Shown one piece after another: positions 6,447 through 62,011 of a DNA stretch of 64,000 bases. The first letter of the stretch is position 1. Each line of letters opens with the position of its first letter. Origin of the DNA: an uncultured Actinomycetota bacterium (GTDB lineage: Bacteria > Actinomycetota > Actinomycetes > JAHEKZ01). The notes beneath the pieces were generated by a model. It had not been told where the DNA came from. It saw nothing but the letters and a program-made list of their open reading frames with translations, and did not search any database. The DNA lies in NCBI GenBank assembly GCA_963718235.1, contig CAVQYR010000002.1, positions 416,001 to 480,000 on the forward strand. The letters are read 5' to 3'. Position numbers and translations under genes: made by a program.

Positions 6447-7421
6447 GTGCCCAGAGTCGAGGTCGTGCCGTTCGCCGACCACCACCTCACCGAGGCGGCC
6501 TGGCTGCTGAGCCGGCAGCACAAGTCGTTGCGTTCGGTCGAGCCGCTCCTACCGGTGGCGTACGAGCAGCGGGAACGGGTGGAGGCGGGCCTCGTCGAGC
6601 TCCTCTCCGCAGGCGCCACGGGCTCGGTGGCCCTGCGTGCAGGATCCCTGGTCGGGTACCTGCTCGGGTCAGCCCGTGAGGACGACGTGTGGGGACCGAA
6701 CGTCTGGATACCACCGGAGGGTGCGGCGGCGCGCGAGCCGGACGTGCTGCGCGACATCTACGCCGATGCCGCGCAGCGATGGGTCGACGAAGGGCGCACG
6801 GCCCACTACGCGTTGGTCCCGGCGCAGGACCCGTCGGTGGTTCGGGCGTGGTCGCACCTGTGCTTCGGGGTCCAGCACGTCCACGCGGGGCGGCCGCTCC
6901 CGAGGGCACCCGGTGAGCGACCGGACCCGCCGCCCGGCCTGACTGTGCGGCCGGCCGTGCCCGGTGACGTCGCGGCGATCGCGGCGATCGACGTCCAGTT
7001 CGGCGAGCACCTGCGGCGCGCCCCGGTGTTCTCCCGGATGGCGGTCCCCGCTCTGGCCGAGGCTGTGGTGGAGGCGAAGGAGTCCCTCGAGGACCCCACG
7101 CTCCACACGTTCGTGGCCGAGCGGAGCGAACGCGTGATCGGTGCCGCCGTCGGCTGCGACCTGAGCCTCTCGTCGGCCCACTCCGGACCAGCCCGGCTGG
7201 ACGGCGCTGCAATGCTCGCCTGGGTGGGCGTCGACGAGAGCCAGCGCGGAGCGGGGGTCGGCCGGGCCCTTGCCGACGCCGTCCTGACCTGGGCCGAGCA
7301 GGGCGACTACCGCGCCATCGCGACCGACTGGCGTGCGGCCAACCTGCCGTCGTCGCGGGCGTGGCCACCGCTGGGGTTCCACGAGACGTTCCTGCGCCTG
7401 CACCGGCTCATCGGGTACTAG
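6447..7421 (+). CDS. GNAT family N-acetyltransferase
   Basis: C-terminal VDESQRGAGVGRAL acetyl-CoA motif and ANLPSSRAWPPLGF. TAGCGT lies 6 nt before the GTG. Confidence 0.85.
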   Translation: MPRVEVVPFADHHLTEAAWLLSRQHKSLRSVEPLLPVAYEQRERVEAGLVELLSAGATGSVALRAGSLVGYLLGSAREDDVWGPNVWIPPEGAAAREPDVLRDIYADAAQRWVDEGRTAHYALVPAQDPSVVRAWSHLCFGVQHVHAGRPLPRAPGERPDPPPGLTVRPAVPGDVAAIAAIDVQFGEHLRRAPVFSRMAVPALAEAVVEAKESLEDPTLHTFVAERSERVIGAAVGCDLSLSSAHSGPARLDGAAMLAWVGVDESQRGAGVGRALADAVLTWAEQGDYRAIATDWRAANLPSSRAWPPLGFHETFLRLHRLIGY

Positions 7422-7821
7422 CGAGGACCCCCCAGCCGGCGAGCGTGTCGACCAGCCCCGCGCTGGTCGGCAGGGCGCGCAGGGTGGACTCGTCGACCCA
7501 GCGGGCGTCACTCGCGTCGTCGCCGGCCCGAAGGCTCCCCCCGACCACCGTGCAGGAGAAGTCGACCACCTCGAAGGTCGTGGCGCCCGCGACCAGGGTG
7601 AGCCGACCGATCTCGTGGTCGACGAGGACGCGCAGCCCGGTCTCCTCGAGCACTTCGCGGGCGCAGGCGGTGTCCTGGGCCTCGCCGGGCTTCACCCGTC
7701 CTCCGGGCAGGGACCACAGACCCTGGCTCGGCGGGTTCGCCCGACGAACGACCAGGAGGTGCCCGTCGTGGTCCCGGATGACCGCACCTACGGCGGGAAC
7801 GACCAGGTCCTGGGGAGGCAT
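7408..7821 (-). CDS. NUDIX hydrolase
   Basis: Nudix box LPGGRVKPGE...AREVLEETG, plus AGDDA. Confidence 0.92.
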   Translation of the reverse strand: MPPQDLVVPAVGAVIRDHDGHLLVVRRANPPSQGLWSLPGGRVKPGEAQDTACAREVLEETGLRVLVDHEIGRLTLVAGATTFEVVDFSCTVVGGSLRAGDDASDARWVDESTLRALPTSAGLVDTLAGWGVLASTR

Positions 7822-7883
7822 CGGACCATGATGGGCACCAGGTGGGTTGACGGCAACGGTGGTCGGGCGCGACGGTTCGGCTT

Positions 7884-8519
7884 GTGAAAGCCTCGCCGCG
7901 CTGCCCCAGGTGCCACGAGTCGATCGCGCCGCCCGGGCTGTTCTCCAGCGAATGGCGCTGTGAGAGGCACGGTCCGGTTGCTCCCCTGCAGGCGCCTGTG
8001 CCCCCGACCGAGGACGCCCTGACCGCCGTTCTGTCGGCCACCCGGGTTCCGGTGTGGGTGCCCTGGCCGCTGCCGGTCGGGTGGTTGCTCGCCGGTGCCG
8101 TCACGGCAGGGGACGACCGCACCGGCGGTGTCGGCTGCGCCGTGGCGCTCAGCGGTCCGGCGCCCTTGGGGGGGCCGGCCGACCTGGTCCTGGTGGCCGA
8201 GGAGCCCGGGGTCGGCATCGGTGCGGGTCTGGCCGGGCTGCAGGCGTCCGACCCGGGTCCCGGAGCCGCGTTCGGCCCGCCGGTCACCCGGGTGTCGGCG
8301 GCGAGCCATCCCACCCCGATGTGGTCGTTGCCACCGGTGCCGGGGCACGACCGCGCGGTCTACGTCGGCGAGGCCGCCGGATGCTGGCTGTGGGCGCTGT
8401 GCTGGCCCAGCGAGGTCAGCCTCGTGCTGCACGACTCCTTCGAGCTCGTCGACCTGCGGGAACCGGGACACCAGCTGGACCTGCCGTTCGGGGCGCCGTC
8501 CCCGCGCCTTCCCGGCTGA
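7884..8519 (+). CDS. Conserved actinobacterial protein (DUF6758-like)
   Basis: N-terminal CPRC...CERHG and VPVWVPWPLPVGW, LVAEEPGVG motifs recalled from this family. Confidence 0.75.
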   Translation: MKASPRCPRCHESIAPPGLFSSEWRCERHGPVAPLQAPVPPTEDALTAVLSATRVPVWVPWPLPVGWLLAGAVTAGDDRTGGVGCAVALSGPAPLGGPADLVLVAEEPGVGIGAGLAGLQASDPGPGAAFGPPVTRVSAASHPTPMWSLPPVPGHDRAVYVGEAAGCWLWALCWPSEVSLVLHDSFELVDLREPGHQLDLPFGAPSPRLPG

Positions 8520-52427: not shown

Positions 52428-55394
52428 GTGACGTTCCAGACGCCGCCGCCTGCTGCCCCCGCCAGCCCGGCCCCGGCCCCTTCCCGCCGTAACCGTGCCC
52501 TGCTGCCGACGGTGGTGGTGGTCGGACTGCTGGTGGTCGGCTTCCTGCTGTTCGTCAGCTTCTACACCGACTGGTTGTGGTTCTCCGAGGTGGGGTTCAC
52601 CTCCGTCTTCACCAAGTCGCTGGTGACCCGGTTCGCGCTGTTCGCCGCGTTCTTCGCCGTCATGTTCGGCGGCGTCGTCCTCAACGGCTACCTTGCCTAC
52701 CGGTACCGGCCGCCCTTCCGCTCGATCTCCCTGGAGCAGCAGAGCCTCGACCGCTACCGGGTCGCCATCGACCCCTTCCGGAGGACCCTGCTGATCGCAC
52801 TCGGTGCGATGCTCGGCTTCTTCCTCGGGCTCTCGGCCGTCGCCGAGTGGCAGACCGTGTTGGCCTGGCTCAACCGGACCGCATTCGGCGTCGTCGACCC
52901 GCACTTCAAGTGGGACCTCTCGTTCTACACCTTCACCCTGCCCTGGCTGCGGTTCGTCCTCGGGGCGCTGATGTGGGTCGTGGCCATCTCAGCGGCCGTC
53001 GCGGCGGTGGTCCACTACCTGTACGGGGGGTTCCGGCTCCAGACGCCGGGCGAGAAGACCACCCCGGCGGCGCGCGCCCACCTGTCGATCCTGATCGGCC
53101 TGTTCGTGCTGCTCAAGGCCTTCGCGTACTTCCTCGACCGCTACGAGCTGCTGGTGTCCAACTTCAACCCAGACCTCACGGGTGCGGGGTACACCGAGAT
53201 CAACGCCGTCCTCCCGGCCAAGAACATCCTGATGGTCATTGCGGTCATCTGCTCCCTGCTGTTCTTCGCCAACGTGTTCCGCCGCACGTGGTCGCTGGCC
53301 GTGCTCGGCCTCGGCCTGCTCGTGGTCAGCGCCTTCGTCATCGGCGGCGTGTATCCGGCACTTGTGCAGCGCTTCACTGTGCAGCCCAGCGCCGTCCAGA
53401 AGCAGCAGCCGTACATCGAGGACAACATCGCGTCCACCCGGCAGGCGTACCAGCTCGACGGGATCGAGAAGGAGGCGTACTCGGGGATCATCGACGCCAC
53501 CAAGAAGAACTTCGCAGCGTCACGAGGCACCATCAACAACGTGCGACTGATGGACCCGTCCCTGCTTGCGCCTACCTACGACCAGCTGCAGCAGATCCGT
53601 GGGTACTACGGCTTCCAGGAACCGTTGGACATCGGACGGTACAACCTCACCGAGCAACAGCAGAGCGTCGTCGTCTCGGTGCGTGAGCTCGACCTCGACG
53701 GTGTTCCCGAGGCGCAGCGCAACTGGATCAACGAGCACCTCGTCTACACGCACGGGTACGGCATCGTGGCGGCACCCGACGACACGGTCACGGCAAACGG
53801 TGAACCCGACTTCATCGAGTACGACATCCCACCGCAGGGAGTGCTGGACGTCGAGGAACCACGGGTCTACTACGGCGAGCTCTCGCCGAGCTACTCCATC
53901 GTCGGTGCCGGCGAGGGTGACGGTGCACGTGAGCTCGACTACCCGGACGACACCACGGAGTCAGGGCAGCGCAACAACACCTATGACGGCGGGGGAGGGG
54001 TCCCGATCGGGTCCTTCTTCAACAAGCTGGTGTTCGCCACGAAGTACCAGGAGGGGAACATCCTGTTCTCCGACCTGGTGAACGAGAACTCCCGGATCCT
54101 CTACAACCGCGAGCCCCGTGAGCGGGTCCAGGCGGTTGCGCCGTGGCTGACCCTGGACGCCGACCCGTACCCGGCCGTGATCAACGGACGGATCACCTGG
54201 ATCATCGACGGCTACACGACCACCGACGGAATCCCCTACTCCGAGCGGGTGCCCTTCGGCGACGTCACCACCGACGCACTGACCGCACAGCAGAACCTGG
54301 GACAGCCCCTTCCGCGCGAGCAGATCAACTACATCCGCAACTCAGTGAAGGCGACCGTCGACGCCTACGACGGAACCGTGACCCTGTACGAGTGGGACGA
54401 GTCCGACCCGGTTCTGCAGACCTGGATGAAGGCCTTCCCAGGAAGTGTTCAGCCAAAGTCGGAGATCAGCCCAGACCTGTTGCAGCACCTGCGCTACCCC
54501 GAGGACCTGTTCAAGGTTCAGCGCGAGCTGTACGCCTCGTACCACGTCACCGACCCTTCGACGTTCTTCTCCGGCAACGACCTGTGGCAGGTGCCCGCCG
54601 ACCCGACGGTCGAGGCCGACGTCGCCCAGCCGCCGTACTACTTGACGATGCAGATGCCGGACCAGACCCAGCCGACGTTCTCCTTGACGACGCCACTTGC
54701 GCCGAACAAGCGCGAGACGCTGGCTGCCTTCATGGCTGTCAACAGTGATCCGCTCTCGGCGGACTACGGGACCATCAGGGTGCTCGAGCTGGGCCGCAAC
54801 ACTTCCCTGCCTGGACCGAGTCAGATGCAGAACCAGTTCACCTCCGACACCACGGTGGCTGAGCAGCTTCGTCTGCTCCAGGGAGGAAGCTCCCAGGTCG
54901 AGCTCGGCAACCTGCTGTCGCTCCCGGTGGCTGGAGGGTTCATCTACGTGGAGCCGGTCTACGTCCGGGCCACCTCGGGTGTGGCCCCCTACCCACTGCT
55001 GCGCAAGGTGCTGGTCTCCTTCGGCAGCGAGGTTGCCATGGAGGACACGTTCGAGGAGTCACTCGCGTCCTTGGTCGAGCAGTCGGGTGGGTCGTTCGAT
55101 CCAGGCGGTGGCAGCGGCGGTGGCAGCGGTGGCGGTGGTTCGGACCAGACCGCCCAGGAGCAGCTGGTCCAGGCACTGCGCGACGCCGAGCAGGCTTACG
55201 CCGACGGTCAAGCGGCGCTGCGTGCGGGCGACTTCACCGCCTACGGGGCGGCGCAGGACCGACTCGAGGCCGCCCTCGAGCGTGCGGACGCCGCAGCCCA
55301 GGAGCTGGGGGTCGCGCCACCGAGCGACACAGTGACGCCGGGCGAGTCACCGTCGCCGTCGGCGACCGCGACGACAGCGTCCGACATCGCCTGA
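52428..55394 (+). CDS. UPF0182 family membrane protein
   Basis: YTDWLWF, HLVYTHGYG, PRVYYGE, NYIRNSVKATVDAYDG, HLRYPEDLF. TACGGT lies 6 nt before the GTG. Confidence 0.95.
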   Translation: MTFQTPPPAAPASPAPAPSRRNRALLPTVVVVGLLVVGFLLFVSFYTDWLWFSEVGFTSVFTKSLVTRFALFAAFFAVMFGGVVLNGYLAYRYRPPFRSISLEQQSLDRYRVAIDPFRRTLLIALGAMLGFFLGLSAVAEWQTVLAWLNRTAFGVVDPHFKWDLSFYTFTLPWLRFVLGALMWVVAISAAVAAVVHYLYGGFRLQTPGEKTTPAARAHLSILIGLFVLLKAFAYFLDRYELLVSNFNPDLTGAGYTEINAVLPAKNILMVIAVICSLLFFANVFRRTWSLAVLGLGLLVVSAFVIGGVYPALVQRFTVQPSAVQKQQPYIEDNIASTRQAYQLDGIEKEAYSGIIDATKKNFAASRGTINNVRLMDPSLLAPTYDQLQQIRGYYGFQEPLDIGRYNLTEQQQSVVVSVRELDLDGVPEAQRNWINEHLVYTHGYGIVAAPDDTVTANGEPDFIEYDIPPQGVLDVEEPRVYYGELSPSYSIVGAGEGDGARELDYPDDTTESGQRNNTYDGGGGVPIGSFFNKLVFATKYQEGNILFSDLVNENSRILYNREPRERVQAVAPWLTLDADPYPAVINGRITWIIDGYTTTDGIPYSERVPFGDVTTDALTAQQNLGQPLPREQINYIRNSVKATVDAYDGTVTLYEWDESDPVLQTWMKAFPGSVQPKSEISPDLLQHLRYPEDLFKVQRELYASYHVTDPSTFFSGNDLWQVPADPTVEADVAQPPYYLTMQMPDQTQPTFSLTTPLAPNKRETLAAFMAVNSDPLSADYGTIRVLELGRNTSLPGPSQMQNQFTSDTTVAEQLRLLQGGSSQVELGNLLSLPVAGGFIYVEPVYVRATSGVAPYPLLRKVLVSFGSEVAMEDTFEESLASLVEQSGGSFDPGGGSGGGSGGGGSDQTAQEQLVQALRDAEQAYADGQAALRAGDFTAYGAAQDRLEAALERADAAAQELGVAPPSDTVTPGESPSPSATATTASDIA

Positions 55395-55494
55395 CGGCGT
55401 TCGACCAGGCCCCGGCGTTGCTCGGCACGGGTACCGGTTTGGTCGTGGGGGCCCGCTTCGCCTAGAGTGTGCGCAGCACGTGACGACGTGTCGG

Positions 55495-55571
55495 CGCGGG
55501 GTGGAGCAGCTCGGTAGCTCGCTGGGCTCATAACCCAGAGGTCGCAGGTTCAAATCCTGCCCCCGCTACCA
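55495..55571 (+). tRNA. tRNA-Met(CAT), initiator type
   Basis: 77 nt; unpaired C1/U72, GGG-CTCATAA-CCC anticodon arm, GTTCAAATC T-loop, encoded CCA. Confidence 0.97.
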
Positions 55572-55580
55572 ATGTTTTCG

Positions 55581-55619
55581 CAGGTCAGGGCCATGATCAT
55601 TGATCATGGCCCTGACCTG
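55581..55619. repeat. Perfect 19-bp palindrome after the tRNA (terminator or protein site)
   Basis: CAGGTCAGGGCCATGATCA-T-TGATCATGGCCCTGACCTG; a 14-bp-arm version recurs at 58774-58802. Confidence 0.85.
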
Positions 55620-55874
55620 TGTGTAGGCAAAATGTCGGCAACCCTGCCGACACGGGACACCGTCTCGGTTGGCGCAGAAGCCGGTTTGCTCGACGCTGGT
55701 GCACGTCCGGAGACACTCGTGGACGACACGTCTGCGCCGGCGGCGCGTTTGCGCCGGTTGACCTCTGGGTCGAAAACCCAGGAGTCGCCGAAGGTGGTCG
55801 CTCACGGCGTCAACCGTCGCGGTGACCGGCGCGACGACCGTCGCGATCGCCGTTAGCACACCGACGGGAGTGGG

Positions 55875-58226
55875 CTACTGGCGGGCCAGATGTGCTCGTA
55901 GCTCGGCTTCGGGGTCGACGATCAGTTCCCCGCTGACGTCCACGACCACTTGCTCGAGGCGGCCGGTGAACTTGAACGGGCTCGGGTACGCCGGGGTCAC
56001 CGGGGACCCCGGGTTGTGGCCGCAGCTGACGCCGCCGGGGTTGAACATGAACGGCGTGGTGTAGGGGGCGTCGGCGCTGGCGACCAGTGAACCGTCGACG
56101 TACAGCTGGAGCCGTCCGGGGGCGCCCCGGCCGTGCGGCAGGTCGGCCTCGCCGGTGGGCTCGAACTCGAAGCGAAGCTCGTGGCGCCCGGCCGGGAGCG
56201 GGTCGGGCGAGGAGACGGTGAACCGCTCCCGCGCAACGTAGTTGTGGACGTAGTGCAGCCGGCCGTCCTTGACATACAGCGAGTAGCCACCGGCGGCCGT
56301 CCCCTGGCAGAACAGGACGCCCTCGGCACCCCCCTCCGGGATGTCCACGGTCGCGCTGATGCTGTGCGGACGGTTGTGCAGGCGCGGGGCAGCGAAGTTG
56401 GGGATCGACTGGGTGCCCGGCCGGTAGGTGTACTGGTTCCGCGGCAACGCGACATGCGGCTTCTCGACTGTCATCCGGGCCAGGCCGCTGCCATCGACTG
56501 GCATGACCTGGTACTTGCCGGCTTCGACGTACCAGGTCCCGATCAGCTCGATGAGCTTCTCGCGGTTCTCGGTGGCGAGGTTGTGGTTCTCCGCCGGGTC
56601 CTCGTCGATGTGGTATAGCTCCCAGCCGGTGGCGTCGAGCTTCGTCAACGTCTCGGCCGAGATGGGGTTGCCGAAGCCGGTGCCTGCCTCGGCGAACGAC
56701 GGGCCCGGCCACGGGCAGACGGCACGCCAGCCGTCCTTGTAAATGGCCCGGTGGCCCAGCATCTCGAAGTACTGGGTGTGGTGCCGGCTGGGCGCCGCCG
56801 GGTCGTCGAGCGCGTGGGCGAAGCTGACGCCCTGGATCGGCGACTGCGTGACGCCGCGGATCGCCGTCGGCGGCTCCACGCCGAGGAGGTCGAGGACTGT
56901 CGGCACCATGTCGATGATGTGGGTGTACTGCGAGCGCACCTCGCCACGCGCCTTGACACCGGCCGGCCAGGACACAATGAACGGGTCGCTGGAGCCGCCG
57001 CGGTAGGTCTCGCGCTTCCAGCGCCGGAACGGCGTGTTGCCGGCGAATGTCCAGCCCCACGGGTAGTGGTTGAAGTGCTCGGGGCCGCCGATCTTGTCGA
57101 TGACGGCCAGGCTCTCCTCGAGCGTCTCCTGGGCGTTGTTGAAGAACTGCGCCTCGTTGGTCGTTCCGCCCGGGCCGCCTTCGGCACTGGCACCGTTATC
57201 GCTGATAACCATGACGATCGTGTTGTCGAGGATGCCCTGCTCGCGCAGGAAAGCGAGCAGCCGGCCAAGGTGGTGGTCGGTATGGCTGAGGAACCCCGCG
57301 AACACCTCCATCATGCGCGCGTAGAGCCTCCGCGCCTCCGGCGACAGGGACTCCCACTCCGGCACGTCCGGGTCGTGGCGGGACAGCTCGGCGTCCGCCG
57401 CCAGGATGCCCAGCTCCTTCTGCCGGGCGAACACCTTCTCCCGGTAGGCATCCCAGCCGTCGTCGAACTGGCCGGCGTACCGGTCGGCCCACTCCTTGGG
57501 CACGTGGTGCGGGGCGTGGGTCGCCCCGAAGCACAGGTGCAGATAGAACGGCTTGGCGGGATCGATCTGGCGCAGGTCGGTGATGAACTCGATCGACTTG
57601 TCGACGAGGTCCTCGGTCAGGTGGTAACCCTCCTCCGGTGTCCGGGGCGGCTCGACCGGGTGGTTGTCATAGACCAGCTCGGGGTACCACTGGCTGGTGT
57701 CGCCGCCCAAGAACCCGTAGAAGCGCTGGAAGCCGCGTCCCAGCGGCCACCGGTCGTACGGGCCGGCGGCGGTCTCATAGACGCTCGGCGTCAGGTGCCA
57801 CTTGCCAACCATGTACGTGCCGTAGCCCTGCTCGACGAGCATCTCCGACAGCATGCCGTTCTCGAACGGCATGATGCCGTTGTAGCCCGGGTAGCCGGTG
57901 GCGAACTCGGTGATGCATGCCATGCCGTTGCTGTGATGGTTGCGCCCCGTCACGATGCACGACCGGCTCGGCGAGCACAGCGCCGTCGTGTGCATGTTCG
58001 AAAACCGTAGCCCGCCCGCCGCAAGCGCATCGAAGTTCGGCGTCTGGATCGGGCTCCCGTAGCACCCCAGTTGGCCGAAACCCGTGTCGTCCAACACCAC
58101 GAACAACACGTTCGGCGCGTCCGCCCGAGCTCGCGTTGGCGCCGGCCACGCCGCAGACGACTCCTCCGCCGTACGACCGATCACACCCGGAAACGGCCGA
58201 CCCGAGTCGTACTCAACGACCGCCAT
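55875..58226 (-). CDS. Arylsulfatase (Cys-type, cytoplasmic)
   Basis: PNVLFVVLDDTG, ALCSPSRS (CxPxR), GKWH, SDNG. No signal peptide. Confidence 0.95.
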   Translation of the reverse strand: MAVVEYDSGRPFPGVIGRTAEESSAAWPAPTRARADAPNVLFVVLDDTGFGQLGCYGSPIQTPNFDALAAGGLRFSNMHTTALCSPSRSCIVTGRNHHSNGMACITEFATGYPGYNGIMPFENGMLSEMLVEQGYGTYMVGKWHLTPSVYETAAGPYDRWPLGRGFQRFYGFLGGDTSQWYPELVYDNHPVEPPRTPEEGYHLTEDLVDKSIEFITDLRQIDPAKPFYLHLCFGATHAPHHVPKEWADRYAGQFDDGWDAYREKVFARQKELGILAADAELSRHDPDVPEWESLSPEARRLYARMMEVFAGFLSHTDHHLGRLLAFLREQGILDNTIVMVISDNGASAEGGPGGTTNEAQFFNNAQETLEESLAVIDKIGGPEHFNHYPWGWTFAGNTPFRRWKRETYRGGSSDPFIVSWPAGVKARGEVRSQYTHIIDMVPTVLDLLGVEPPTAIRGVTQSPIQGVSFAHALDDPAAPSRHHTQYFEMLGHRAIYKDGWRAVCPWPGPSFAEAGTGFGNPISAETLTKLDATGWELYHIDEDPAENHNLATENREKLIELIGTWYVEAGKYQVMPVDGSGLARMTVEKPHVALPRNQYTYRPGTQSIPNFAAPRLHNRPHSISATVDIPEGGAEGVLFCQGTAAGGYSLYVKDGRLHYVHNYVARERFTVSSPDPLPAGRHELRFEFEPTGEADLPHGRGAPGRLQLYVDGSLVASADAPYTTPFMFNPGGVSCGHNPGSPVTPAYPSPFKFTGRLEQVVVDVSGELIVDPEAELRAHLARQ

Positions 58227-58713
58227 CGCAAGCCTCCGCATCCGCTGGTCAACAGGGCGGTCAACCCCGACTCGAACTCGACCACGGACCCAGTCGCACG
58301 GTCAAGGGGCCCAGGTCCCCCCGAGTGCGAAGCCCCGATGGCACGCTGACCGTCAAGACCGCTCTGGCAGTTCCGACCCTGAGGCGGGCGGCTCACGACC
58401 CACGCCGTCGCACACCTGATTACGCCTCTCGTGATGGCAAGTCGATCGCCGGGGCCCGCGACTCCGCGTCGACGGGCTTCGTATGCGGGACGTCCGCCGG
58501 CGTCGGAGGCGCTCTGTCGAAGGCCGCGTCGAGCGAAGAAGTCAGCCGGGAGGCAGGTTCGCCATGTCGGCAGAATGTCGGCAACACATGCGCGGACGTG
58601 GCTGGATGCCAGGCGACGCCGACAGGCGTGGGTGGGGCTGTCACCTGCGACGACGGTCCTTCCACGACCGTCCCCGAGCGTCCAGGGCTGCTCGTTGGCC
58701 CGGGTGCTTCTGC

Positions 58714-58760
58714 GGCTCATAACCCAGAGGTCGCAGGTTCAAATCCTGCCCCCGCTACCA
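58714..58760 (+). repeat. Duplicated 3' part of tRNA-fMet (att core)
   Basis: GGCTCATAACCCAGAGGTCGCAGGTTCAAATCCTGCCCCCGCTACCA; the 5' half of the tRNA is absent. Confidence 0.95.
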
Positions 58761-58978
58761 CGTTTACGCAGGTCAGGGCCATGATCAGTGATCATGGCCC
58801 TGTATCAGTGTTGGCAGAATGTCGGCAAGCCTGCCGACACGGGGACCGCGCCGACACCGGGTTGACGCCGGTCCGCTCGACGCTGATGGACGTGCGGGGA
58901 CGCTCGTGGACGTCCTGTTTGCTCCGGCGGGCTGCAAGGCCGTTTGACCTCTGGGTCGCTACCCCACGGATCTCCGAA
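58761..58978 (+). repeat. Diverged copy of the post-tRNA module at 55572-55791
   Basis: Colinear blocks: GCAGGTCAGGGCCATGATCA, AATGTCGGCAA.CCTGCCGACACGGG, GCTCGACGCTG, CTCGTGGACG, TTGACCTCTGGGTCG. Confidence 0.88.
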
Positions 58979-59300
58979 CCACCCCTGACCCGTGCGGTCC
59001 CTGCGTCATGTCGGTACGTCACGCGCGCCACCATGCTCAGTAGGGCGACGCGGCCACTGCGGAACAACCGAGAGATAAGGTGAACGTGGTGCGCCGGGAA
59101 GTCTGGTCGGCAGTCATGTCGTCGACCCCTAGGGGCCCTGTGTTGACTCGTTCCGCTTTGACTGGCTCGCGACGAGAAGCGCGACGCCGGGCACGCCGCC
59201 TCTCGAACCTCGCGGTTCGTGTCCGTACCCGGTCGTTTGAGGACGCGACTCGGACGGGTCGCACCTCCTGCACCGGCACGAGCGCGACACAGGTCACCTG

Positions 59301-62011
59301 ATGGCCACCCACGTGGGCGCCAGAGCAACCGCTCATCATGTCCTGGCTGGGCATGAGGTCGTGCTGCTGTTGGAGACTGATCCGCATCGAGGGTTGACGT
59401 CGGCAGAGGCAGCCGAGCGGCTAGACCGCTTCGGGCCGAACGTGCTGCCGCGCACGGGGACGGCTGGGCCGTTGCGGCGGTTCCTTCGCCAGTTCCAGCA
59501 CCCGCTGATCTACGTCCTGATCGCTGCGGGCGCGATCACCTTGGCGTTGGGCGAGGTGGTGGACTCCGTCGTCATCTTCGGCGTGGTGTTGATCAACGCG
59601 GTCATCGGCTTCATTCAGGAGTCCAAGGCCGAGGCGGCGCTTGATGCGTTGCGCGCGATGGTGCGGACCCAGGCTCGGGTGGTGCGCGACGGGCGCGCCC
59701 GCACGGTTGCGTCCGACGAGCTGGTGCCCGGCGATCTGGTCAGGGTCGAGGCCGGTGACAAGGTCCCCGCAGACCTGCGGCTACTTGGGCATGCCGAGCT
59801 GCAGGTCGACGAGTCGGCGCTGACCGGGGAGTCGGTCCCGGTGGTCAAGGACGAAGTGGCGCTCCCTCCGGACACCGCGGTCGCCGACCGCCGGAACATG
59901 CTCTACTCGGGCACGTTGGTCACCCACGGCACCGCGGTCGGCGATCGTGGTCGCGACGGGCGCGCAGACCGAGCTGGGTGAGATCCACCGCTTGGTCGGC
60001 GCCGCCGACGTGCTGGCCACTCCTCTGACCCGCAAGCTGACGTGGTTCAGCAAGGTGCTGACTGTGGTCATTCTCGGTCTGGCGGCGGTGACCTTCCTCG
60101 TCGGTATGCTCCGCGGGGAGAAGCCAGCCGAGATGTTCACCGCGGCGGTCGCACTGGCGGTTGGTGCGATCCCTGAGGGATTGCCGGCGGCGGTGACCAT
60201 CACGTTGGCCATCGGTGTCAGCCGGATGGCCCGGCAGCGGGCGGTGATCCGGCGGCTGCCCGCGGTGGAAACCCTCGGCAGCACCACCGTCATCTGCACC
60301 GACAAGACCGGAACGTTGACTGAGAACCAGATGACCGTCCGCCAGGTGTGGACGCCAGGCGGTGGCTTCCAGTTGAGCGGGTCCGGCTACGCCCCGGACG
60401 GTCGGCTGGTCGACGACGCTGGGCTGGTTGGTGACACCTCGGTCGAGGGGGCGCTGCGGTGGAGCCTCCTGGCCGGGGCCCTGTGCAACGATGCGCGGCT
60501 GTCCGAGACAAGAGGGCCTGTGGCAGGTGGTGGGTGACCCCACGGAAGGTGCCTTGTTGGTTGCGGCCGCCAAGTCGGGCCTGGACCTGGACGAGGGGCG
60601 CGGCGCGCTGCCCCGGATCTCGACCGTTCCGTTCAGCTCCGAGCGGCAGTTCATGGCGACCCTGCACCGCGACCGCCGCATCGGGGAGCGCGTGGTGCTG
60701 GCCAAGGGCGCCACGGAGCGCATCGTGGACTTGTGCGGCGCCCAGATGGACGCCGTGGGCTCGCGGCAGCCGCTGGACCGCGACCGCGTCCTGTCTGCGG
60801 CCGAGACGATGGCCGCCGGCGGACTCCGGGTGCTCGCCACCGCCCAAGGGCACCTCGAGGACGCCGACGAGCTCGGCGAGGACCAGCTGCCCGGGGCCCT
60901 CGTCCTCACTGGCCTGCAAGGCATGCTCGACCCGCCCCGCGCGGCCGCCATCGCGGCCGTGGCCGCCTGCCACGCGGCCGGCATCGAGGTGAAGATGATC
61001 ACCGGTGACCACGCTGGCACCGCCAGCGCAATCGCCGAGCAGGTCGGTGTGATCGGCGCTGAACACGAAGGCAAGGTCGTGCTCGGGACGGAGCTCAACC
61101 AGCTCGACGATGCGGCCTACACGGGAACGGTCGAGCGCGCCGCGGTGTTCGCCCGGGTTAGCCCGGAGCAGAAATTGCGCCTGGTCGAAGCGCTGCAAGG
61201 GCTTGGCCACGTGGTCGCGATGACCGGAGACGGCGTCAACGACGCCCCCGCGCTCCGCCAGGCCGACATCGGAATCGCCATGGGCCAAGCCGGGACGGAG
61301 GTGGCGAAGGAAGCAGCCGACATGGTCCTCACCGACGACGACTTCGCCACCATCGAGGGCGCCATCGAAGAGGGCCGCGGAGTCTTCGACAACCTCACCA
61401 AGTTCATCGTCTGGACCCTGCCGACCAACATGGGTGAGGGACTGGTCATCCTGGTCGCGATCCTGCTCGGGACCGCGCTGCCGATCTCACCGGTGCAGAT
61501 CCTGTGGATCAACATGACCACCGCGGTGGCACTCGGCCTGATGCTCGCGTTCGAACCGAAGGAACCAGGCATCATGACCCGACCGCCCCGCGACCCGCGA
61601 CGCCCCCTGCTCACCGGTGCGCTCATCACTCGGATCCTGCTGGTCTCCGCGCTGCTGGTCGGCGGGGCGTGGTGGCTGTTCGAATGGGAGCGCGCCAACG
61701 GCGCCTCGTTGGCCGAGGCGCAGACTGTCGCGGTCAACCTGTTCGTCACGGTTGAGGCGTTCTACCTGTTCAGCTGTCGCTCGCTCACAAGGGCGGTCTG
61801 GCGCATCGGATTCTTCAGCAACCGCTGGCTGCTCGGCGGTGTCGCTCTCCAAGCGATCGGGCAGCTCGCCCTCACATACCTGCCCGCCATGAACGGGCTG
61901 TTCAGCACCGCGCCGATCCCACCCGAGGCGTGGCTGCGGATCCTCGCGGTCGCGCTCGCCGCATCGGTTGTCGTCGCGGTCGACAAGCGGATTCGCCGTG
62001 CGGTTCTGTGA
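59301..62011 (+). pseudogene. Cation-transporting P-type ATPase (CtpF/PacL-like) split by two +1 frameshifts
   Basis: TGES in frame A; PEGL and DKTGT in frame B; GDPTE, KGA, TGD, GDGVND in frame C. Shifts near 59943 and 60508. May be a sequencing error. Confidence 0.85.

Follow-up and report, generated by a model that had tools for sequence, protein, structure and literature searches.

A single-gene sulfatase unit behind tRNA-fMet in an uncultured member of the Actinomycetota, best read as a non-autonomous relative of integrative islands at the same tRNA

How did a lone sulfatase gene come to lie between an intact initiator tRNA gene and an exact second copy of the 3' half of that tRNA, with no integrase gene beside it? 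The question is raised by positions 55495-58978 of a 64,000-nt stretch of DNA (hereafter, the window; contig CAVQYR010000002.1, positions 416,001 to 480,000, forward strand) from an uncultured member of the Actinomycetota. The genome, here G000, is a metagenome-assembled genome (MAG; GCA_963718235.1) of 3.17 Mb in two contigs, 95% complete and with 2.15% estimated contamination. Our best reading is that the sulfatase unit is a non-autonomous member of a family of integrative islands at tRNA-fMet, similar to a cis-mobilizable element (CIME) and stacked at the tRNA by accretion.

The genome has three tRNAs with a CAT anticodon, and the only tRNA that ARAGORN identified in the window is one of them, a tRNA-Met(CAT) at 55495-55571 on the plus strand (Rfam tRNA, 63.6 bits). 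We take it to be of the initiator type by its C1:U72 mismatch and the three G:C pairs in its anticodon stem. The 3' 47 nt of this tRNA, from the anticodon loop onward (55525-55571, plus strand; core copy 1, on the attL side), are repeated exactly at 58714-58760 (plus strand; core copy 2), with a start-to-start distance of 3189 nt. This second copy is a partial tRNA 3' half that scored 21.4 bits, under the Rfam gathering score of 29, and it is not a functional tRNA. Apart from the tRNA and the sub-threshold copy, an Rfam scan of 55300-59400 returned two spurious miRNA matches on a hairpin (see below). An intact tRNA followed by a direct repeat of its 3' part is the arrangement by which integrative islands are recognized. 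The first-pass annotation of this DNA had described the 47-nt repeat, its spacing and the single enclosed sulfatase gene, and all of its numbers were correct. It had also taken the repeat for an att core, and this is supported.

Each core is followed by a copy of the same non-coding module, as had also been noted: the similarity continues in register for ~220 nt, in blocks of 41 nt (95%), 36 nt (92%), 67 nt (81%) and 40 nt (80%). A search for further copies of core and module had been proposed. A search of the whole assembly returned only these two (100% and 81%), in addition to a weak match to another tRNA-Met and self-matches of the palindrome, and a sensitive search of C2:460-560 kb found no third core.

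Between the cores, the only open reading frame (ORF) with a Pfam match was that of a type I sulfatase of 788 aa (55875-58241, minus strand; Sulfatase PF00884, E 1e-67), which has a CSPSR motif; ORFs overlapping the arms had none. No integrase was detected in the 3189-nt unit, either with Pfam or with tblastn for remnants. On the left, a non-coding P' arm (55572-55874) was 79-86% identical to the P' arms of three other genomes (G005, G041 and G042). It begins with a GC-rich inverted repeat directly 3' of the tRNA end (55581-55619, plus strand; CAGGTCAGGGCCATGATCA / TGATCATGGCCCTGACCTG), which is followed at 55622-55652 (plus strand) by three short sites: TGTAGGCA at 55622, TGTCGGCA at 55633, one 11-nt period further, and an inverted TGCCGACA at 55645 (+97, +108 and +120 from the core start). 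On the right, a P arm of 160 nt (58554-58713, plus strand) carries a pair of TGTCGGCA 8-mers at 58565 and 58576 (-149 and -138 from the core). The second core is then followed by another P' arm (58761-58978, plus strand) with its own hairpin, a TGTTGGCA/TGTCGGCA pair at 58809 and 58820 and an inverted TGCCGACA at 58832. No matching right end was found downstream of this orphan arm, which is a leftover of an older integration. The order along the locus is thus tRNA-core, P' arm, cargo, P arm, core and the P' arm of something older, and 58554-58978 is a hybrid P-arm/core/P'-arm, attP-like junction, in agreement with the first-pass annotation. The annotation had also proposed a tandem array here. 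G000 has one complete unit and the orphan left arm; true stacks exist in other genomes (G003, G041 and G043).

The short repeats within the arms resemble integrase docking sites. As a single 8-mer the motif occurred in G000 at chance frequency (127 seen, 112 expected), and as a pair at 11-nt spacing it occurred four times, three of them at the tRNA-fMet locus. An alignment of 13 P-arm copies from 10 genomes (members of the order, together with loci from pattern scans of genome collections) showed the 8-mer pair to be the most conserved 19-column stretch, with a mean pairwise identity of 0.90 compared with 0.69 for the rest. In addition, the 8-mer type agreed between the two arms: TGTNGGCA in G000, G005, G041 and G013, TGACCGCA in G043 and GGTATGCA in G046. 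The repeats stand on both sides of the core, in the same geometry as in integrase-bearing relatives. We consider the 8-mer pairs to be putative integrase arm-type sites that would make up both halves of an attP-like site.

The arrangement after each core was uniform: a spacer of ~8 nt, a hairpin opening with a nearly invariant GCAGGTCAG, 8-mers at 11-nt spacing and an inverted copy. Among 34 related arms, RNAalifold predicted 16 pairs in the hairpin, eight of them with compensatory changes. The hairpin is probably the tRNA terminator, supplied by the element, because relatives without arms also have a GC-rich hairpin 3' of tRNA-fMet. At the other end of the P' arm, at the 3' end of the sulfatase gene, there is a GC-rich stretch of ~50 nt with internal repeats (GCGTCAACCGTCGCGGTGACCG / GCGACGACCGTCGCGATCGCCG; window 55794-55860), which recurs at C2:499718-499776 of the same genome and in G001, G006, G008, G023, G025 and G038, and may be an element of the repetitive extragenic palindromic (REP) type or a terminator.

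Integrase-bearing islands were found at the same tRNA, two in G043 and one each in G015 and L070/G046, and their integrases were 58-60% identical across these genomes. In all three, an 8-mer pair at 11-nt spacing lies ~150 nt left of the core (TGACCGCA in G043, TTGGCAGCA in G015 and TGTGGGCR in L070), with the integrase start (M-A-W) ~20 nt beyond it. This is the position held by the TGTCGGCA pair in the integrase-less arms. The integrases consist of SAM-like and catalytic domains and ~60 N-terminal residues without a Pfam match, which we infer to be a candidate arm-binding domain. A search for the island integrase in viral contigs gave seven pattern matches, none of which was confirmed. A contig of G043 (G043:C30) has two cores at a distance of 20.9 kb, each with a gene for a 374-aa integrase immediately to its left (the two integrases are 95% identical). 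Further along come segments without an integrase, of 17 kb and 6.5 kb, which P-arm/core units delimit; units with and without an integrase are thus found together on one contig. The G043 island of 21 kb carries metal and sulfur cargo in addition to its integrase, and no conjugation or phage family was identified by Pfam among its 56 ORFs. The 17-kb segment (L079; 3634-20000) is a polysaccharide cluster between two cores, with three sulfotransferases, two pectate-lyase-fold proteins, glycosyltransferases, and Wzz/Wzy-like and flippase proteins.

The identical pair, TGTCGGCA-N3-TGTCGGCA, was also found in metagenomes. A metagenome scan with the form TGTCGGCA-N-AA-TGTCGGCA matched at least 120 stretches, and 80 loci among the matches listed were read. 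Among these 80, a tyrosine-integrase ORF ended 23-75 nt upstream of the pair in 21, and a tRNA (Thr, Ser, Arg, Trp, Pro, Lys, Phe or Leu) lay 36-83 nt downstream of it in 22. Most of the loci had 43-55% G+C and therefore belong to other lineages; a tRNA-fMet core stood beside the pair only in L201 and L210, and L188 resembled a P arm. Their recurrence beside integrases and tRNAs shows a pair of this kind to be an arm feature associated with integrases.

The sulfatase unit is not alone in lacking an integrase. In our survey of 41 genomes around G000 (the unpublished G025 counted in the tally), in 40 of which the tRNA was matched, extra copies of the tRNA 3' half lay on the tRNA contig in eight (G000, G003, G004, G005, G012, G014, G020 and G030), and fragmented assemblies had further copies on other contigs. 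In G003, a 9-kb region contains four cores, that of the tRNA and three more, the extra ones being 95.7-100% identical, and a fifth, weak copy (83%) was also seen. The P arm was found in five of 20 genomes of the order, and an exact scan of a genome-contig collection with a 22-mer from it returned three loci, all without an integrase. Complete integrase-less units of the TGTNGGCA type were identified in G000 (sulfatase, 3189 nt), G005 (4.3 kb; an ars operon with ArsR, a permease, two low-molecular-weight phosphatases and a thioredoxin), G041 (a metallo-beta-lactamase (MBL)-fold hydrolase, 1.9 kb; and a sulfatase, 3.2 kb), G042 (an MBL-fold hydrolase) and G013:C168 (HigB and others, 3.2 kb). Their other hosts are likewise uncultured Actinomycetota.

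Among 264 candidate ORFs from 13 loci (161 in seven loci and 103 more), PF00589 was matched once, in G020, which has a different arm type; the set of 103 gave no match. Tblastn with 13 integrases likewise detected no integrase remnant in the integrase-less units (best E 0.056). Two such units are stacked in G041, and cargo content and order vary from genome to genome. For example, the flanks of G042 are 86% identical to those of G041 and an MBL unit is common to both at 90%, and the units after it differ. At least two sequence subtypes of the core-proximal P arm can be told apart, and they are shuffled from unit to unit. Older islands could not be delimited by downstream synteny, as no neighbour order was kept between genera. 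Comparison of these sequences gives good evidence that the integrase-less units are a family with retained att arms around varied cargo, as had been proposed. The existence of other arm-flanked cargo units also sets aside the alternative named in the first-pass annotation, that the sulfatase unit is a one-off deletion remnant of a single large island.

Several of these genomes have an insertion sequence (IS) of the rve/rve_3 (DDE) type directly 3' of the tRNA-fMet core (L030 of G012, 6933-8177; L077 of G042, 6503-7702), and sequences resembling its ends were seen in L053 (G019), L081 (G044) and L169 (G046:C4). The final 15 nt of the core are repeated beyond the IS in G042, which suggests that this IS targets the tRNA end or the hairpin.

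The sulfatase unit itself recurs in G041, where the MBL unit takes the first place of the array and the sulfatase unit the second. Window positions 55525-58797 aligned with L076 6970-10221 at 94.9% identity over 3276 nt, and the alignment begins exactly at the core and stops in the hairpin after the next core. The sulfatase proteins are 99.1% identical. In contrast, for the flanking UPF0182 gene the two genomes share 68.4% identity at the DNA level and 55.8% at the protein level, the latter being the distance seen to other genera and families (52-60%). These comparisons are good evidence that one integrase-less unit has crossed between distant hosts. The region upstream of the sulfatase gene (58242-58553) is 94.6% identical to that of G041, lies within a block of ~98% identity (55955-58553) and moves together with the cargo. 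Among the best 80 sulfatase loci in a collection of species-representative genomes, arms were present in G041 only. The nearest homologues after G041, at 88-91% amino-acid identity, were in Chloroflexia MAGs and were without arms; for L085-L087 and L121, from such MAGs, identity was 86-91% in amino acids and 84-87% in nucleotides. This suggests that the sulfatase gene has crossed phyla, because its closest relatives outside G041 sit in Chloroflexia and not in Actinomycetota.

Together, these data give good support to an origin of the locus by integration and accretion. In the account that we favor, the locus would be an accretion site of tyrosine-integrase islands that target the segment from the anticodon loop to the 3' end of tRNA-fMet in uncultured soil and sediment Actinomycetota, and 55572-58760 would be a complete integrase-less member, consisting of a P' arm, a single sulfatase gene with its upstream region, a P arm and the second core. 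Integration would have placed the element's copy of the tRNA 3' half and its terminator hairpin behind the 5' half of the tRNA; as the element brought its own 3' half and terminator, the essential tRNA would have stayed intact. The displaced original 3' half (58714-58760) would still precede the left arm of the earlier element. The units may move when an integrase recombines one core with another, an enzyme that an autonomous relative resident in the same cell would provide in trans. We consider it reasonably probable that tRNA-fMet is such an accretion site and that a complete unit without an integrase was moved there by an integrase acting in trans. In G000 the unit is probably fixed for now, because no cognate integrase was found in this genome.

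The main rival explanation accepts the integrations and questions the mobility: successive islands at tRNA-fMet would have lost their integrases by deletion, leaving inert remnants that no longer move site-specifically, and the differences between genomes would be the work of homologous recombination anchored on cores, hairpins and arms. We regard this as a genuine possibility, if not the likelier outcome, and the observations that speak for it weigh against our own account. The first concerns the integrase. A search for a tyrosine integrase beside TGTCGGCA arms had been proposed, and none was found there in G000 or in other Actinomycetota carrying such units; among the Actinomycetota loci found, none combined the two, and the nearest case is L070, with its TGTGGGCR 8-mers. 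All six PF00589 loci of G000 lie away from the tRNA-fMet locus and none is beside a TGTCGGCA pair: two are Xer-like, two are short and close together, one is a C-terminal remnant at a tRNA-Val and one has an in-frame TAG. Their best identity to the island integrases was ~30%, and neither the PF00589 search, nor a scan for arm motifs, nor tblastn with the integrases of relatives identified a cognate enzyme in G000; G041, G042 and G005 were also without a relative of the island integrase. The one pair-adjoining metagenome integrase that was compared (L231) was 25-29% identical to the island integrases, so the metagenome loci do not name the helper. The genomes are, in addition, MAGs, several of them with frameshifts, and the absence of a gene is therefore weak evidence.

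Signs of decay were also seen. Older cores are mismatched in G003, integrase remnants are present elsewhere in G000, and in L201 a tRNA-fMet, hairpin and TGTCGGCA pair are followed, 270 nt on, by a 36-aa C-terminal remnant of a G020-type integrase. L201 is a possible decay intermediate and fits an origin of such units by decay. Finally, the match of the sulfatase unit to G041 is a mosaic, with ~98% identity at 55955-58553, 82-89% in the P' arm, where single-nt indels separate the two copies, and ~70-80% in the core-proximal P arm. This mosaic argues against a recent en-bloc transfer, and together with the shuffled P-arm subtypes it indicates that the histories of arms and cargo are in part separate. 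Some of this must be due to homologous exchange among members of the family, and an arm divergence that exceeds the cargo divergence fits such exchange as well as it fits en-bloc site-specific transfer.

Other observations are not what would be expected of inert remnants. The 8-mer pair is better kept than its surroundings across the 13 aligned copies, all integrase-less, as is expected of a site in use. Both arms are intact in every unit, yet no fragment of an integrase is detectable between them. The inner ends of the arms are common to units with unrelated cargo, which would be hard to obtain by repeated independent deletions, and in a host with a flanking ortholog of only 56% identity the sulfatase unit occupies another place in the array.

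The integrase remnant of G000 mentioned above (C1:1378853-1380059) reads toward tRNA-Val(TAC), a tRNA directly followed by a AGTCTCACA pair, spaced 11 nt, and by a GCAGGTCAGAG motif. The att architecture of that locus is the same as at tRNA-fMet.

If movement in trans is accepted, a further step can be proposed, which we put forward tentatively and think rather unlikely as it stands: the arms would be a portable, self-contained attP "handle", single genes or operons between them would become cassettes, open to excision, uptake and stacking at tRNA-fMet in any cell with a matching integrase, integrases would be shared in trans across uncultured Actinomycetota of soil, and cargo would be swapped between arm sets. 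In that case the mosaic of 98% in the cargo and 80% in the arms would reflect such swapping, and the cassette economy would parallel that of integrons while being built on lambda-type tRNA integration.

Two other explanations fare worse. If the 3' half of the tRNA and the region downstream had been duplicated locally in tandem, and the sulfatase gene inserted later with no mobile element involved, this would account for a duplicated stretch that extends ~220 nt past the tRNA, which is more than a minimal att core would need. The identity between the two modules is, however, 0.76, against 0.84 between the first of them and its copy in G041; the G000 arms are not each other's closest relatives and therefore did not arise by local duplication. 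Moreover, nothing upstream of the tRNA corresponds to the 160-nt arm on the left side of the second core, and this arm recurs in 10 genomes. Contradicted by the arm identities, the recurrence of the P arm and the complete unit in G041, this explanation is very improbable. Least credible of all is a repeat-induced misjoin of foreign DNA behind the tRNA during assembly or binning, which would suit a two-contig MAG with some estimated contamination and frame-broken neighbouring genes (a P-type ATPase here, and UPF0182 in G005), as the same architecture was assembled independently in many genomes and metagenome contigs, the sulfatase unit lies within contigs of 906 kb and 821 kb, and low-depth contigs from two public runs match parts of it at 99-100% identity.

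Sequencing runs were also searched for an excised circle and for the empty site, and 23 matched (best share of words, 0.30). Sampling ~12% of each of four raw public runs (X1, X2, X21 and X23) gave short contigs only, at a depth of 2-10, and no joint spanning the unit was present among them. The broken P-type cation ATPase gene lies at 59301-62011 on the plus strand and is spread over at least two, probably three, frames (59301-59981, N-terminus, E1-E2; 59947-60537; and 60428-62011, HAD, C-terminus); it is either a pseudogene or the product of assembly indel errors. Elsewhere in G000, at C2:70458-70547, ARAGORN reported a 90-nt "tRNA-???" with a four-letter anticodon (ctcg), adjoining a tRNA-Thr.

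The first-pass annotation had regarded the locus as a candidate for an undescribed system, which was an overstatement, since integrase-less, att-flanked elements accreted in tandem have been described as CIMEs (in parts of PMC5704250). The CIME with site-specific accretion is the nearest described concept. By that description CIMEs have no integration or transfer genes and keep attL and attR, and accretion is documented there for ICESt1/ICESt3 of Streptococcus thermophilus (PMC5704250, in part). The sulfatase unit shares these traits, and together with related elements it forms a tandem at the 3' end of its target gene, an arrangement that the same parts of PMC5704250 explain by newcomers entering the att site of residents. 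Unlike CIMEs, the units studied here are very small (1.9-4.3 kb) and mostly of one gene or one operon, several unrelated cargos occur between the same two arms, the target is tRNA-fMet, and the autonomous relative in G043 consists of an integrase and cargo. The likeness rests on gene content and att ends, and the integrase-bearing relatives were, by Pfam, without conjugation genes. Further work on CIMEs and accretion is reportedly that of Pavlovic (2004), Bellanger (2011) and, in Streptomyces, Zhang and Loria (2017). Among the papers listed by literature searches, none described the present element family.

The tycheposons of Prochlorococcus, tRNA-targeting elements with a tyrosine recombinase and niche cargo that are flanked by partial tRNAs, are similar in that islands grow at a tRNA, newcomers push older elements inward, and remnants and scattered partial tRNAs are left behind (10.1101/2020.12.28.424599, in the available portions). 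Unlike the units here, they carry their own integrase (937 integrase-carrying elements), many with a replication module (same portions of 10.1101/2020.12.28.424599). Integrase-less, "cargo-only" tycheposons were also considered; those portions of 10.1101/2020.12.28.424599 did not bear them out, and the idea was dropped. The phylum and the integrases also differ, and neither the sulfatase unit nor its relatives have the recombinase of their own, and commonly the replication module, that mark a tycheposon. In staphylococci, elements of the staphylococcal cassette chromosome (SCC) type that lack ccr, such as the arginine catabolic mobile element (ACME) and pseudo-SCC, stack at rlmH/orfX. They resemble the units here in having repeats of the 3' end of the target, no recombinase and a tandem position with recombinase-bearing units, the recombinase acting in trans; unlike them, SCC elements use serine recombinases (Ccr), target a protein gene and are much larger.

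The comparison with integrons made in the first-pass annotation went too far. Like integron cassettes, the units are small, mostly of a single gene, promoter-poor, without a recombinase and stacked at one site. However, what defines an integron is missing from the locus: neither intI, attI nor a cassette promoter Pc lies beside the array, no PF00589 match is near the locus and no imperfect palindrome of the attC type is present. What is repeated is instead the 3' half of a tRNA, flanked left and right by lambda-like arm sites, and a full attP-like site is present in each unit. A reading based on Xer/dif recombination (integrative mobile elements exploiting Xer, IMEX) was set aside, as no dif-like sequence was seen in the core when judged by eye only.

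Were the units only remnants, the locus would still illustrate cleanly how elements accrete and decay at a tRNA hotspot. The conserved arms and 8-mer pairs provide a concrete, testable target on the DNA for one particular family of integrases. Should the units truly move in trans, the unit of transfer would be very small, with ~400 nt of arms and one gene, and the process would operate in abundant uncultured Actinomycetota of soil and sediment, where island finders that rely on integrases would miss such units. It would also explain how flexible stacks of genes are built behind an essential, single-copy tRNA.

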